Shown here: one piece after another, positions 2,715 to 8,138 of the stretch | Position numbering within the stretch: the stretch's first letter is position 1 | Layout: each line of letters opens with the position of its first letter | DNA from: Bacilli bacterium | GTDB lineage: Bacteria > Bacillota_I > Bacilli_A > ML615J-28 > CAG-698 | Assembly (NCBI GenBank): GCA_918272565.1 | Contig: CAKJYW010000002.1 | Coordinates: 44,266-108,265 of the forward strand | Length of the DNA stretch: 64,000 nucleotides | Direction: 5' to 3' | Position numbers and translations under genes: made by a program | Notes under the pieces: generated by a model | The model's input: only the letters and a program-made list of their open reading frames with translations | Database searches by the model: none | Told to the model about the DNA's origin: nothing

Positions 2715-3227
2715 TTACAAGCTTTTTGCAATTATTTCTTTAACTATTTCTTCTGGTGTTCTATTTACAGTATTAATGTGTGTTGCATTTAAATCATTGT
2801 TTTGTGCTTCAATACACATTTTAACATTTTTCATACACCAGGCTTCTTCACTTTCTCCTCTTTTTAGAATTCTATCATGAATAGTTTGATAGTCTCCATC
2901 CAAAAAGAAATAGCCAACTTTGATATTATCATCTTTTAATTTCTTAATAATATCATTATAAGATTCTTTTCTAACTAATGTCATTGGTACTACTATATCA
3001 CCATCATATTTGCTAGAAATATCTTTTAATAATTCATAATTATATTTTCTCCATAATTCATAATCTTCAAATATATAGCTGAATATTAATTCTTGTGGAT
3101 GATTATCCCTCACAGCGTTACCTACTGCCTCAGGATCAAATATATATGCTTTCTTTAATTTTTTAACTAAAGCTTCGGCTATAGTTGTTTTACCAACACC
3201 ATAACTTCCATTAATCCAATAAATCAT
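2715..3227 (-). CDS. tmrB: TmrB-like ATP-binding protein (tunicamycin-resistance / AAA_33 P-loop kinase family)
   Basis: N-terminus MIYWINGSYGVGKTT matches B. subtilis TmrB (MIIWINGAFGSGKT) and shows colinear similarity throughout. 170 aa. Confidence 0.6.
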   Translation of the reverse strand: MIYWINGSYGVGKTTIAEALVKKLKKAYIFDPEAVGNAVRDNHPQELIFSYIFEDYELWRKYNYELLKDISSKYDGDIVVPMTLVRKESYNDIIKKLKDDNIKVGYFFLDGDYQTIHDRILKRGESEEAWCMKNVKMCIEAQNNDLNATHINTVNRTPEEIVKEIIAKSL

Positions 3228-3300
3228 TTTTGTTCCTCATTTTATCTTATCATTTATCTTATCACTTTCTAATTTAATATGATAAGATATCTCATGTTAT

Positions 3301-4608
3301 CTATTTTATAAACCTCAATAAAAAGTCTGCTATTCCTATCACAGTAAAACCATTTAAATCTAATGACTCTTCTAGTGGCTTATTAATTACGATTATTTTT
3401 TGAATTGAATCTTTTAACGCAAAGAAAGGTTTAAGTTCCCTTGCTTTAGTTTCTGCATTTGAGATGTCGCTAGCAACTTGTATGTAGTATTTTTTTATTC
3501 CACGTTGTGCCACAAAATCAATTTCATATGTATTTCTAACACTTTCGCCATTTTTATTTTTTTCATATTTTTCAAATGTTCCTACATTAACAGTATAACC
3601 ATTGTAAAGCAATTCATTATATACCATATTTTCAAGCATTTGTCCTTCATCATCATAAGCAAAATTAAGTCTTGCGTTTCTCAAGCCATTATCAACAAAG
3701 AAATACTTTCTTAGAGCTCCAATTTCATTATTTCCTTTTACATCATAACGTGTTGCTTCTCTTAAAATAAATGCATCAATAAAATAATCAATATATTTTT
3801 TTACAGTGTCTTTATCTATGCTGTCTTTTGTCACGCTCTTATATGTATCAGCTATTTTTTGCGAATTAAAGAGTTGTCCTGTACCTTCACTTATAATATT
3901 ACATAGTGAATCAAGAGCTTCTGTTTTTTCTAATTTATTATGCTCTAAAATGTCTTTAAAATATGTTGTTTCAAATAATCCCTTTAAGTAATCTTTTTTA
4001 TCATTAATATCTTTTAATACTGCAAGAGGCATACCTCCATATCTCATATATTCAAATACAGTATCAGAAGATCTACTATTTTTATAATTTGAAAATTCTT
4101 CAAAAGAGAGTGGATATAAAGAAATATTTGTTGCTTTATCCCTAAATTCTGTAATTACATCAGATGATAACATCTTAGAGTTAGAGCCAGTAGCATATAA
4201 ATCAATATATTTTTCTCTAGATAAACCTAATACTACTTCTACAAAAGAAATAACATCTTTATCGTCTTCTTTAGCAATAACATATTCTCCATTTGTAAAA
4301 ATTGGATTAACAATTGTTGTTACTAGTTGTACCTCATCTATAAACACATAATTAATTGTATTAACATTACATTTATTCCTTATATATTTATCTAGTTCTA
4401 TTGGATTTCTATATTTTGCATTCTTTAAATCATCAAGCTCAACAATTATAATATTGTCTTCTGATACACCCTCACCTAGCAAATGCTTTTTAAATATTTC
4501 TTTTAACAAGTATGATTTTCCACATCTTCGTACACCTGTTATTATTTTTGGAAAACCGTTCCCTTTTGATGAAATCAATTTAGATAAATAAACATTTCTT
4601 TCAATCAT
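3301..4608 (-). CDS. AAA+ ATPase of the AAA_14/DUF4143 (COG1373) family
   Basis: Walker A GVRRCGKSYLLKE near the N-terminus; 435 aa, the typical length and architecture of archaeal-type COG1373 ATPases. Confidence 0.55.
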   Translation of the reverse strand: MIERNVYLSKLISSKGNGFPKIITGVRRCGKSYLLKEIFKKHLLGEGVSEDNIIIVELDDLKNAKYRNPIELDKYIRNKCNVNTINYVFIDEVQLVTTIVNPIFTNGEYVIAKEDDKDVISFVEVVLGLSREKYIDLYATGSNSKMLSSDVITEFRDKATNISLYPLSFEEFSNYKNSRSSDTVFEYMRYGGMPLAVLKDINDKKDYLKGLFETTYFKDILEHNKLEKTEALDSLCNIISEGTGQLFNSQKIADTYKSVTKDSIDKDTVKKYIDYFIDAFILREATRYDVKGNNEIGALRKYFFVDNGLRNARLNFAYDDEGQMLENMVYNELLYNGYTVNVGTFEKYEKNKNGESVRNTYEIDFVAQRGIKKYYIQVASDISNAETKARELKPFFALKDSIQKIIVINKPLEESLDLNGFTVIGIADFLLRFIK

Positions 4609-4619
4609 GTGCTTTCTCC

Positions 4620-4724
4620 TTTTTCATAGAATTCTATGTTTTTTTCGATTATAGTTTAACATTTTTAATATATATTGTCAATTTTTGTAATGCTTTTTTT
4701 CATAGAATTCTATGTTTTTTTCGG
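4620..4724. promoter_or_regulatory. Duplicated 28-nt element containing the perfect 14-bp palindrome CATAGAATTCTATG (putative operator)
   Basis: TTTTTCATAGAATTCTATGTTTTTTTCG occurs at ~4620-4647 and ~4696-4724, immediately upstream of the ATPase gene that starts at 4608 on the minus strand. Confidence 0.4.
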
Positions 4725-5133
4725 TTGTATTAAATTTGTTCAACTGCAATAGAAAGAATTAAAATACTTATCACGAAATTTTTTATACTTAAATTGAATA
4801 CTGATGCATTAAAAAAAGCCTAAAATTTTGTTCTTTAGGCTTCATAAATTTGAACTATTCTTTTTCTGTTACGTTATAAATCTTTTCTTTATTACTTTGT
4901 AATAAAGTAGTTTATTTCCGAAGGCTCTTATCGGTTTTGACAAGACAACAAACTGCCTCAAGTGGCGACCAATACTTCTGGTCAACTAGGCAAATCACAA
5001 AGAACATATTATTTCAACATGCTACCAACGAGCGAACCCAACTGGGAAATGATAAAATGATTAATACGCAACAAATCTATTGTATTCCACAAGGCCTAAA
5101 TTCCATAGTGTTCTTTTTTAAAAAATGTTACTC

Positions 5134-6486
5134 TTATATATCCGTTTTTCCAATTGCAAACGTTAAATAATGAGGAATCGTTATGATATCACCTGTTTCA
5201 GAAATATTATAATCGCCTATCTTAATCAACTTAGTTTTACCATAGTGGTTAGGATTATTCATAACTTGTTTACTTGATTTCGCATTACCTGTTTTTGATT
5301 TAGCTTCAACTAAAGTAGAAAATCCTTTATATGAAATAACAAAATCAATTTTTAGGCCACTATCTTTTCCAAAATAATATAGCGGTACTCCTGCCTTATA
5401 TAATGAATCAGCAACAACTGCCTCAAACAAATAGCCCTTGTTCATTCCTAGATTATCTTGTAAAATTCCTTGAATTACGTCAAATCCTAAAGTGTTTATC
5501 ATAATTCCAATATCGCCATAGAAAAGTTTATAATCCGAGGCAATCTTACGTATACCTAATGGTAAAGAAGGAACTTCAACATTATAAGCTTTAAAGGCAA
5601 TCGATGCATTTACTAAATAATTAATAGCATCATCTCTTTGATAACTATTACCACTTATTTTTGATGTTACAAATCTATGATTATTATTAACAATAAATGA
5701 AGCAATCAAATCAAATGCTTTTTGTATTCGCATTATCTCTGTGGTTGTATAAAGCGGTTTTCCTTGAGAATCTAATCTTTTTGACGGATCACCTTTAATA
5801 TCAATCACAAGACTATTAACCTTTTTAAATACTTCAGAAAAACTGTTTGTTTGTATAAATTTCAAAACAACTTCAGGATACCCCCCAACACAAACATATT
5901 CTTTAAATAATTGTTTCATTTTATTATGAATTGTTTCTGGTACAGGTATTTTGTTTTCAAAACATTCTAATAAGTTATTTATATGCTCATCATTATAGCC
6001 AAGTGCCCATAAAAACTCTTCAAAATCCATTGTTTTCATTTCAATAAAATCTTCAGAGCCATTTGGTTTTGGAACACCATGACTATTATCTATATTAAGC
6101 CCAACATATGAACCACTTGAAATAACTTCAAATCTTCCATCTTCTTTAAAACTTTTAAATGCAAGTCTAGCTTTCGGACAGTCTTGTATTTCATCGAGAA
6201 TTAATACTGTTTCGTTTGGAACAAATTTAAAAGAAGGGAATAATGCAGATAAAGATTTTAGTATTTCATCAACCTCTAAAGAATCATCAAAAGCTGATAC
6301 AGCATTAGGTGTTTTCCAAAAATCTATTAAATTAACATATTTAAAATTGTTTTTAGCAAACTGCTTTATGCTTTCGCTTTTTCCACATTGTCTTATTCCA
6401 TAAACAAGAGCAGGAGAATGACCTTTACTTTTAAACCAAATTTCTAATTGTTCATCTATTTTTCTTTTAAAGTAAACTTTTTCCAT
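5134..6486 (-). CDS. AAA+ ATPase of the AAA_14/DUF4143 (COG1373) family, second diverged copy
   Basis: Walker A GIRQCGKSESIKQF; 450 aa; same architecture as the 3301..4608 gene but low identity to it. Confidence 0.55.
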   Translation of the reverse strand: MEKVYFKRKIDEQLEIWFKSKGHSPALVYGIRQCGKSESIKQFAKNNFKYVNLIDFWKTPNAVSAFDDSLEVDEILKSLSALFPSFKFVPNETVLILDEIQDCPKARLAFKSFKEDGRFEVISSGSYVGLNIDNSHGVPKPNGSEDFIEMKTMDFEEFLWALGYNDEHINNLLECFENKIPVPETIHNKMKQLFKEYVCVGGYPEVVLKFIQTNSFSEVFKKVNSLVIDIKGDPSKRLDSQGKPLYTTTEIMRIQKAFDLIASFIVNNNHRFVTSKISGNSYQRDDAINYLVNASIAFKAYNVEVPSLPLGIRKIASDYKLFYGDIGIMINTLGFDVIQGILQDNLGMNKGYLFEAVVADSLYKAGVPLYYFGKDSGLKIDFVISYKGFSTLVEAKSKTGNAKSSKQVMNNPNHYGKTKLIKIGDYNISETGDIITIPHYLTFAIGKTDI

Positions 6487-6541
6487 AAATAATTCCTTCC
6501 AGCAATTATAATATCAAATAATGTGTAATTAGTAAATATAT

Positions 6542-6595
6542 TTGCACCAATTTCATAGCGACTTTTTCCCTATTTTGCACCAATTTCATAGTGAG
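6542..6595. promoter_or_regulatory. Direct repeat TTGCACCAATTTCATAG(C/T)GA, two copies, upstream of the second ATPase gene
   Basis: Copies at ~6542-6562 and ~6575-6595, 33 bp apart, lying 60-110 bp upstream of the start at 6486 (minus strand). Confidence 0.3.
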
Positions 6596-6711
6596 TTTTT
6601 ATAATAATCACACCAAATAATTATTAATAAAAAAAGTTGAACAATTGATATGATATCTTCAAAGTAGACAGTTTCCACTTTTTATCATTATTAAAATACG
6701 TAATAGATAGC

Positions 6712-6773: not shown

Positions 6774-8138
6774 TTATTCATCCATTTCAACAATGTTATC
6801 AGCGTATGCACTCCATGTTTGGTTAGCAATGTACATTTCTTTACTTCCTTTTGGAACATAGATTGTTACATTACTAGGTAGACGGAATGATGTACCCGCA
6901 ATTGAGAATGAGTTAGGGTTCTTAGCATAGATATACATCTCTGTAAGTTTAGGGCATCTTTCGAATGCTGATGCTTGAACCTTAATCTTTTCTGGAGTAG
7001 GGCTAACAGTAATTTGTACTGTTGCTTTGATTGTTGGATCACTCTTTAGAGCACAAGTGATAGTTAAGTTACCAGCCGCAACACCTCTGATTGTACCTTT
7101 ATCAGCATCTACTGCAGCTACATTACTACTATTAACACTCCAAGTAACAAGTTTACCACTTGCTTCTGTTAATTTAATGATATCACCGATGTGAATGTTT
7201 CTAGCTCCTTTAATAACAAGTCCAGATGCTGATTCAGAAGCAACTTCTGTCATGAATTCTTCAGAATATAAATCATCATCGTTAACCATGAACTTAACAG
7301 TCTTTAGACGTTTGCTACTACTGAATGCAAATTCACCAATACCAGTAACGCTTGCAGGAATGACAACTTCTCTTAATCTCTTGCTTTGGAAGAAAGCATA
7401 TTCTTCGATTGTAGTGACATTATTACCAATTGTAAGTTCTCTAATAGTACTTGCAGGATATGTGATTTGGAAAATCTTTCCAAATCTAGCAAATGCAAAT
7501 TTCTTAATTATTGTTACAGGAAGACCATCAATTTCATCAGGGATTGTAACTGTTCTCTCTCTACCTGCATAATTAACTATCGCAATATTAGAATAAGTAA
7601 CTTTATCAGTTTCAAGTTTATATGAAGGACGATATTCAAAATCTTCATATACATGTAAAGCAGTCTTTAACCACAAATCATCAGGAAGATTTCCTAATCT
7701 CTCATAATCAGGGTTAATATAAACAGTTGATGTGAAAACCCAAGGATTTTCATTTGTTTGGCTCATGTAAATATCGAATTCGATATCTTGAGCTGATCCA
7801 CTTTGAGTTACAGTAGCAGTAACGTGAGCACTATAATATAGTTGCTTTACAGCTGAAGATGAAAGGTCAGCTTCAGTTGTGAATTCAAATGTCTTTGTAG
7901 CTATCTTATCAATATCACTGAATTGATCAAAGTTTTCTTCTTTTTCTAAGTATGCTTTGTAAGTAGAAGCTCCTTCAGGGTAGTAGCAAGCAGTAATCTT
8001 TTCTCTATTTTTAGCATTTACTGCGCTAACATAATTTTCCCAAAGTTGCTTTGCACCTTCGTTTTTGTTACCACACCCACTGATTAGAGCAAGGCAAATT
8101 ATAGTCATAACTACAATAATAGTTTTTCTGAATTTCAT
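6774..8138 (-). CDS. Surface lipoprotein with BspA-type leucine-rich repeats and a Big_2 Ig-like domain
   Basis: Lipobox LALISGCGNK. LRR_5-like repeats IPDEIDGLPVTIIKKFAF...IPASVTGIGEFAF. C-terminal Big_2 segment ...TIRGVAAGNLTITCALKSDPTIKATVQITV. Confidence 0.6.
   Translation of the reverse strand: MKFRKTIIVVMTIICLALISGCGNKNEGAKQLWENYVSAVNAKNREKITACYYPEGASTYKAYLEKEENFDQFSDIDKIATKTFEFTTEADLSSSAVKQLYYSAHVTATVTQSGSAQDIEFDIYMSQTNENPWVFTSTVYINPDYERLGNLPDDLWLKTALHVYEDFEYRPSYKLETDKVTYSNIAIVNYAGRERTVTIPDEIDGLPVTIIKKFAFARFGKIFQITYPASTIRELTIGNNVTTIEEYAFFQSKRLREVVIPASVTGIGEFAFSSSKRLKTVKFMVNDDDLYSEEFMTEVASESASGLVIKGARNIHIGDIIKLTEASGKLVTWSVNSSNVAAVDADKGTIRGVAAGNLTITCALKSDPTIKATVQITVSPTPEKIKVQASAFERCPKLTEMYIYAKNPNSFSIAGTSFRLPSNVTIYVPKGSKEMYIANQTWSAYADNIVEMDE

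Follow-up and report, generated by a model that had tools for sequence, protein, structure and literature searches.

The closest described relatives of the genes considered here are those of the COG1373 family, which are listed in PADLOC as PDC-S01. PDC-S01 belongs to a candidate set that was proposed through 'guilt by embedding' and was left untested in that work. Its genes are among the commonest defence candidates in bacteria and archaea: one survey across prokaryotes ranked the family fourth in frequency among the systems, and in rumen genomes no single locus was more frequent. One PDC-S01 representative was assayed in Escherichia coli B and gave no protection against T4, T5 and T7. The literature agrees with a preliminary description of the DNA analysed here that COG1373 proteins have no established function, and a literature search gave no account of promoter repeats or autoregulation in the COG1373/PDC-S01 family. 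Here we describe two such ATPase genes in a 64-kb stretch (the window) of contig CAKJYW010000002.1 from a Bacilli bacterium. The genes themselves are ordinary members of a known family; the clade-specific architecture of their promoters is the part of which that search gave no description. Comparison of loci indicates that each gene is an independent, horizontally mobile one-gene cassette, composed of a promoter, clade-specific repeat units and the gene. On balance, we consider it probable that the units serve as operators and are bound by a sequence-specific protein, most likely the cassette's own ATPase, which would make these elements autoregulated mobile one-gene cassettes.

Both genes lie on the minus strand. 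ATPase 1 (positions 3301-4608, 435 amino acids) matches the Pfam domains AAA_14 (5.8e-26, 91.4 bits, cut-off 27) and DUF4143 (7.9e-20, 71.6 bits, cut-off 28.1), and ATPase 2 (5134-6486, 450 amino acids) matches them with 3.5e-17 and 63.1 bits, and 1.1e-16 and 61.5 bits, respectively. With both domains above the gathering threshold in each protein, the earlier naming of two diverged COG1373 (AAA_14/DUF4143) ATPases is borne out. The Walker A lysine and the Asp-Glu pair of Walker B are kept in the AAA_14 domains of both. As stand-alone genes they are recognised by the PDC-S01 profiles PDLC04787 (ATPase 1, 4.8e-101) and PDLC04786 (ATPase 2, 8.6e-105). The family to which they belong comprises 9,764 clusters at 50% identity (E <= 1e-3). 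BLASTP detects likeness between the two only at the P-loop, and their identity in alignment is about 20%. Looked up as exact proteins, ATPase 1, its 100% cluster and ATPase 2 all gave no record.

The region upstream of ATPase 1 carries two copies, 94% identical, of a 34-nt unit, each with the exact palindrome CATAGAATTCTATG; this is the duplicated palindromic element that had been noted before. All elements are read on the minus strand. The proximal unit, TCGAAAAAAA-CATAGAATTCTATG-AAAAA, occupies 4620-4653 with its palindrome at 4625-4638, between the -10 box and a ribosome-binding site GGAGAAAG (4612-4619) that was read from the sequence and of which GGAG is conserved in the promoter alignment. 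A promoter-like site with a TG extension of the -10 box (TTGACA-17-TAAACT, 4653-4681) lies between the two units. The distal unit, at a distance of 76 bp from the proximal one, spans 4696-4729 with its palindrome at 4701-4714. A gap of 5 nt separates the end of the -10 box from the conserved TCGAAAAAAA, which places the proximal palindrome around positions +9 to +22 in the inferred transcript, abutting the GGAG ribosome site, and the centre of the distal palindrome at about -61 relative to the inferred start. The ATPase 1 units are placed as operators around a sigma-70-type promoter. In counts that covered the whole window for both repeats, CATAGAATTCTATG had no further exact copies, and 3 matches with up to 2 mismatches were found against 0.64 expected.

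The arrangement upstream of ATPase 2 is of a different kind. Two direct 27-nt units (AAAACTCRCTATGAAATTGGTGCAAA on the sense strand) occupy 6541-6600 of the minus strand with a period of 33, so that TTGCACCAATTTCATAGYGA stands at 6542-6561 and 6575-6594. The nearer unit ends 5 nt upstream of the -35 box of a promoter-like site, TTTACT-17-TATTAT with TG, at 6508-6536 (minus strand). The two direct copies had already been described and are present as stated. A decayed third copy of the unit core, with 8 of 12 positions matching, could be read from the sequence on the same strand exactly 33 bp further upstream (6608-6619), and homologous loci have a third or fourth unit at this offset. Elsewhere in the window no match to TTGCACCAATTTCATAGYGA with up to 3 mismatches was found (0.03 expected).

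A further array was observed at 2445-2590, upstream of the minus-strand gene for an M6-metalloprotease-like lipoprotein (91-2361). It consists of three copies of AATTTCACCTTTTT starting at 2463, 2496 and 2530, with a period of 33-34 and weaker copies near 2445 and 2582, and it resembles the ATPase 2-type array in its 33-bp period and its A-rich/GGTG/A-rich make-up. The synteny of L226 and L227 with the window ends at 2652, so the stretch with this array is strain-variable. A search for the array (2445-2543) in IMG/VR did not find it. It could be the solo remnant of a lost cassette, or it could be unrelated.

To what extent the units belong to their genes can be judged from other genomes. A scan with the pattern GAAAAAAANNTAGAATTCTANNAAAAA of one genome per species, 185,579 species in total, gave 28 loci from several lineages, all of them metagenome-assembled genomes (MAGs) with mostly rumen or gut labels. 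In 21 of the 28 the unit stands directly 5' of an ATPase 1 homologue (63-99% identity) or of a truncated remnant; the others are a few solo units and one probable chance match. The unit was found in MAGs assigned to Acholeplasmatales, Erysipelotrichaceae, Lachnospiraceae and Christensenella, and with a remnant in one assigned to Treponema. The same arrangement was seen in two homologues that were found by protein similarity alone (85% and 82% identity), a route that is unaffected by the bias of a search pattern, and both are in unrelated contexts, one beside terminase and ParB-like phage genes and the other beside a tRNA gene. Altogether, ATPase 1 homologues with the A-tract/palindrome unit come from rumen and gut genomes and phage contigs. 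Two units flank the promoter 72-76 bp apart in 15 loci. In an alignment of 14 loci the A-tracts, the palindrome core, the TTG of the -35 box and the -10 box are conserved, with the consensus TTGAC.../TGnTAxxAT at the same position, and the spacer has diverged. Dyad positions 2 and 13 form an A-T pair in 9 loci and a G-C pair in 5, in both copies, with no mismatched pair.

Two of the ATPase 1-type cassettes are on phage-like contigs. In L001 (1-5800) the 85% homologue has terminase, ParB-like and PAPS-reductase genes beside it, and in L042 (2351-5930) a 99% copy lies on a 55.9-kb IMG/VR contig near genes for an HNH/NUMOD homing endonuclease and a GNAT acetyltransferase.

The linkage is also seen for ATPase 2, of which all ten homologous loci (58-98% identity) carry two to four head-to-tail units with the core AAATTGGTGC and a period of exactly 33 bp, the last core being at -67 to -72 from the ATG. 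A metagenome scan for tandem AAATTGGTGC gave 118 matches, of which about 8 were relevant and the remainder mostly unrelated tandem repeats. Solo arrays persist after gene loss in L017, where the array lies 170 nt upstream of an ATPase 1-type cassette, in L118, where the promoter and four codons remain, and in L125, where the array is alone. The suggestion that each gene has operator-like repeats of its own is therefore upheld in the form of gene-specific cis elements that are under constraint and are placed around sigma-70-type promoters. They are not generic genome-wide repeats, as there are no other copies in the window and in other genomes they occur almost only directly 5' of a gene homologous to the ATPase in question or of what decay has left of one.

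In the wider family the geometry recurs with other sequences. A paralogue with 41% identity to ATPase 1 has two copies of TAAAAAC-GCAAGAACTTGC-AAAAA at a distance of 65 bp, the proximal one lying at the ribosome-binding site, and relatives at 39-47% identity from IMG/VR have two non-palindromic units, such as AAATACGCAAAATTCC and TCCAAACTTTTGTGTAAAA, 73-76 bp apart and flanking a clear promoter. Relatives of ATPase 2 at 31-33% identity carry GGTTGGAAAAGTTTAGT three times or ATTGGAAAACC twice with a period of 33, and a clade at 28-31% identity has two copies of AAAGTTTNTGC or AAAAGTTTAGGG with a period of 39 that straddle the -35 box. Within a locus the two copies are alike, between clades the units are wholly different, as would be expected of paired sites that have to suit a single binder co-evolving with them. 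Where one genome holds different cassettes, their units differ as well. The comparison indicates that promoter architecture is conserved across the COG1373 family and that the unit sequence is clade-specific. A third homologue search, aimed at wider diversity, returned the same clade again. As separate observations, several of these MAGs have two to four COG1373 genes or pseudogenes side by side, and in three of them (L030, L032, L033) a conserved element of about 45 nt, AAAGCCCTAATAGGTTTCATCTAA...GTTAGGGAT, with the inverted ends CCCTAA/TTAGGG, lies between tandem COG1373 paralogues.

The limits of the cassettes follow from the ends of homology. The ATPase 1 cassette, comprising the promoter, the two operator-like units and the gene, spans 3250-4777 (minus strand) and is 98.6% identical to L042 over exactly this span, with flanks in that contig unrelated to the window on both sides. 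In all other loci homologous to ATPase 1 the alignment is limited to about 3301-4729. The ATPase 2 cassette (5003-6644, minus strand) is 95% identical to L036 and 84% to L037 and L038. Loci cease to be homologous at the outermost repeat in one direction and shortly after the stop codon in the other, so that the ATPase is the only protein that is co-inherited with the repeats; neighbouring genes differ in every context. In the closest relatives of the window, L024 (98% nucleotide identity) and L031, synteny is lost at 4961-4963 and ATPase 2 is missing at this position. Decay is frequent, with truncated or frameshifted copies in L010, L014, L020, L022, L026, L030, L033 and L035. Promoter deletion by recombination between the ATPase 1 units, in the manner of phase variation, was considered and rejected, as the single-unit loci L016 and L023 keep the -10 box and merely miss the distal unit.

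Between the two cassettes lies an intrinsic-terminator-like hairpin (4815-4843, minus strand). The stretch from there to the ATPase 2 stop codon (4844-5133) is non-coding and of higher G+C, with no Rfam match and no credible open reading frame (ORF). Its part 4844-4961 is common to L024 and L031, and 5003-5133 is the conserved 3' flank of the ATPase 2 cassette (95% to L036), which puts the junction at about 4962-5003. ATPase 2-type cassettes tend to be found 3' of a gene for an RlmCD/TrmA-type RNA methyltransferase and bear a scrap of its 3' end; L037 (1788-3182) and L038 (2118-3467) have this gene intact. The sequence CTGTCTGC(C/G)TTTTAACGAACCGGxCTGG recurs at cassette boundaries in L017 (1633-1650), L036 (4780-4797), L118, L125 and L226 (985-1002), and a decayed trace of it is found in the window at 6660-6685. 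The idea that this junction is a recombination site was rejected, since the sequence is the 3' end of the methyltransferase gene. The carrying along of this fragment points to ordinary recombination rather than to a dedicated transposition mechanism.

A structural model of ATPase 2 (predicted local distance difference test score, pLDDT, 91; predicted template modelling score, pTM, 0.90) shows an ATPase domain, a helical lid, a helix-helix-hairpin winged-helix module at about residues 248-323 and a C-terminal alpha/beta domain. The protein is accordingly modelled as a STAND/Orc-like ATPase with lid and winged helix, followed by a nuclease-like domain. Sequence and profile searches of the PDB gave no meaningful match, and no solved relative was detectable by them. 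DUF4143 has been placed in the PD-(D/E)XK nuclease superfamily (PMC3424549). The signature of this superfamily is present in ATPase 2, as Glu355, Asp381 and a Glu-Ala-Lys triplet about twelve residues after Asp381, in agreement with the canonical E...D...E-x-K pattern of its clade. In ATPase 1 the corresponding residues are Glu326, Asp364 and Gln378-Val-Ala, and the lysine is missing. The wider branch of ATPase 1 has E...D...Q-(S/V)-(A/C), and nearly all of 108 representatives have no lysine at this position. Nuclease activity is therefore doubtful for that branch, although the catalytic lysine may be relocated.

In view of the above, we infer that a protein binds the units, that this binder is the ATPase, and that the effect of binding is repression that is relieved on activation. 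Expression of the ATPases would then be inducible, as had been suggested before. Autoregulation is the most economical explanation because the ATPase is the only protein always inherited with the repeats and because its fold has at least one plausible DNA-reading module. In ATPase 1 one site would lie just past the transcription start and the second about 76 bp upstream, so that they bracket the promoter, and repression could combine a roadblock at the start site with a short loop or with a wrap around an oligomer. In ATPase 2 the protein would bind two or three head-to-tail sites that abut the -35 box and, being 33 bp or three helical turns apart, present the same face of the DNA. Either the winged helix or the nuclease-like domain could be the reader of the sites.

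Several observations weigh against autoregulation by the ATPase. In STAND proteins the winged helix usually contacts the nucleotide-binding domain rather than DNA, so that its presence is no proof of site reading. No residues in the predicted winged-helix region track the A-T or G-C type of the palindrome. The two ATPase branches differ in the symmetry of their sites, a dyad in one and a direct repeat in the other, which fits poorly with one binding mode for both. The domain layout of ATPase 1 is taken over from ATPase 2, since its own model, made with a shallow alignment, has a pLDDT of 59 and is unusable. That the TAGAATTCTA core does not vary among the scanned loci is in part dictated by the GAAAAAAANNTAGAATTCTANNAAAAA pattern. 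Finally, the best internal repeat falls at a period of 33, 39-40 or 73-78 in 21 of 29 non-redundant family upstream regions and in 10 of 50 control upstream regions, but these period windows were picked post hoc and some controls share the same intergenic regions, which makes the comparison descriptive only.

Four other explanations of the repeats can be considered. The units could be operators for a separate regulator, either a small repressor encoded elsewhere or a global regulator of the host, which we regard as unlikely. The placement of the sites around the promoter suits any repressor or activator, and the array with a 33-bp period and a similar A-rich/GGTG make-up at 2445-2543, the third of its kind in the window, stands 5' of an unrelated lipoprotein gene. 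The preliminary description had anticipated dedicated repressors and pointed to a small helix-turn-helix regulator; this part is not supported, as no plausible ORF of this kind is present in the intergenic regions or elsewhere in or beside the cassettes and the neighbours vary at every locus, which leaves the ATPase as the sole co-inherited protein. Moreover, the same unit is found across widely different lineages, yet one genome can hold different units, so that a host factor would need to be universal and cassette-specific at once.

Somewhat less likely again is a role of the units as recognition, docking or mobility sites, for example as a restriction-like palindrome with GAATTC at its centre that the nuclease-like domain recognises and that marks or parks the enzyme, or as sites used in recombination of the cassette into other places. 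The C-terminal domain has a predicted PD-(D/E)XK fold, and type II restriction enzymes with this fold recognise short palindromes in dimeric form; the cassettes, clearly mobile and often decayed, lose homology close to the distal unit. Both copies, however, are 5' of the gene and do not enclose it, and deletion remnants end within the promoter or the gene (L013, L118) and not at the units. The methyltransferase scrap on ATPase 2-type cassettes again speaks for ordinary recombination. As to recognition by the nuclease-like domain, the ATPase 1 branch is without the catalytic lysine and the units of relatives are non-palindromic.

We consider it improbable that the proximal ATPase 1 unit acts as a stem-loop with A-run flanks in the 5' end of the mRNA, near the ribosome-binding site, where it would affect stability or translation, with the distal copy as a leftover of leader duplication. 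The proximal palindrome does lie within the inferred 5' untranslated region, the pair covariation fits a hairpin equally well, and several loci have a degraded duplicate of the ribosome-binding region after the distal unit, as a tandem duplication would leave. However, the hairpin has 5 bp and little stability (-3.6 kcal/mol, z -1.96), an Rfam scan of the entire window detected no RNA family, and the distal copy upstream of the -35 box keeps the dyad and its covariation, so that untranscribed copies are left unexplained. The units of ATPase 2 and of many relatives are upstream of or inside the core promoter and are non-palindromic. That the repeats are neutral products of local duplication without function is hardly credible: AT-rich intergenic DNA duplicates easily and chance accounts for many of the short two-copy repeats in the region, but the units keep a fixed spacing over 58-99% protein identity while the promoter spacer diverges, which counts against neutral duplication, and their likeness within loci goes together with complete difference between clades.

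The preliminary description had treated the two ATPase genes and a small P-loop kinase-like ORF (2715-3227, minus strand, 170 amino acids) as one block. The ORF lies outside both cassettes and outside the span shared with L042. In fetched loci that extend past the ATPase, tblastn found the kinase adjacent to these ATPases in no other case, and strains with the same kinase and ATPase 1 (99.7% identity) lose synteny with the window again at 2652. With the kinase unlinked elsewhere and ATPase 2 missing here in the closest relatives, the block is made up of independent units that lie side by side in a variable region where decay is frequent. The ORF matches only the generic P-loop kinase families AAA_18 (1.2e-7) and AAA_33 (1.6e-5); for the label 'TmrB-like' no family-specific match was obtained, the best NCBIfam scores being far under the cut-offs. 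Its upstream region (3228-3300) has TGATAAGAT twice in direct and once in inverted orientation (ATCTTATCA), and the direct copies resemble tandem extended -10 boxes. The cassettes are flanked by genes for surface proteins, a lipoprotein with BspA-type leucine-rich repeats and Big_2 at 6774-8138 and the M6-like metalloprotease lipoprotein mentioned above. Beyond these are the housekeeping genes tsaD-rimI-tsaB, and no other recognisable defence gene is adjacent.

The repeats directly supply candidate binding sites, through which the function of the family becomes open to test. Promoter-plus-gene cassettes with private repeats of fixed geometry predict that the proteins bind specific DNA sequences and regulate their own genes, and the failure of heterologous tests of the family may be due, for instance, to self-repression or to the lack of a trigger. 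A more far-reaching and rather doubtful possibility is that the COG1373/PDC-S01 class as a whole consists of STAND-type NTPases that bind specific DNA sequences, with the recognition sequence of each clade written in its own promoter. The repeats would then throttle a potentially toxic ATPase-nuclease and also reveal the motif that it reads, and incoming DNA with a matching sequence could titrate or activate the protein, giving a restriction-like, self-regulating one-gene immune or selfish module. Should this be true, it would open the first direct experimental access to a prokaryotic gene family that ranks with the most abundant of those without assigned function.

A comparison with known systems shows where these cassettes are similar and where they differ. 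Like other PDC-S01 genes, the two ATPases are single-gene, widespread and patchily distributed, but their locus is not embedded in a known defence system. With STAND and Orc-Cdc6-like AAA+ proteins the ATPase 2 model shares the predicted order of ATPase, helical lid and winged-helix module. STAND proteins such as Avs, NLR and Apaf-1 have a C-terminal repeat sensor, whereas the ATPases in the window lack it and have a PD-(D/E)XK-like domain instead. The archaeal PF01637 ATPases (PDB 2qen, 2fna) and Orc1/Cdc6 were compared as well, and there is no sequence-level relationship to any solved structure. In Orc1/Cdc6 the winged helix is a demonstrated DNA binder, a role that would be putative for the winged helix in the window. 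As for promoter organisation, looping repression from two operators over a promoter is of the gal, lac and deo type, and tandem boxes upstream of a -35 box are found in MalT-box-like or iteron-like arrays. ATPase 1 resembles the former in that one of two identical sites precedes the -35 box and the other follows shortly after the start, but the separation of 72-76 bp is below that of classical loops, and ATPase 2 resembles the latter in its head-to-tail sites in helical phase beside the -35 box. The difference from both the gal/lac/deo and the MalT type is that here the presumed regulator would be the product of the regulated gene itself, within a one-gene mobile unit.

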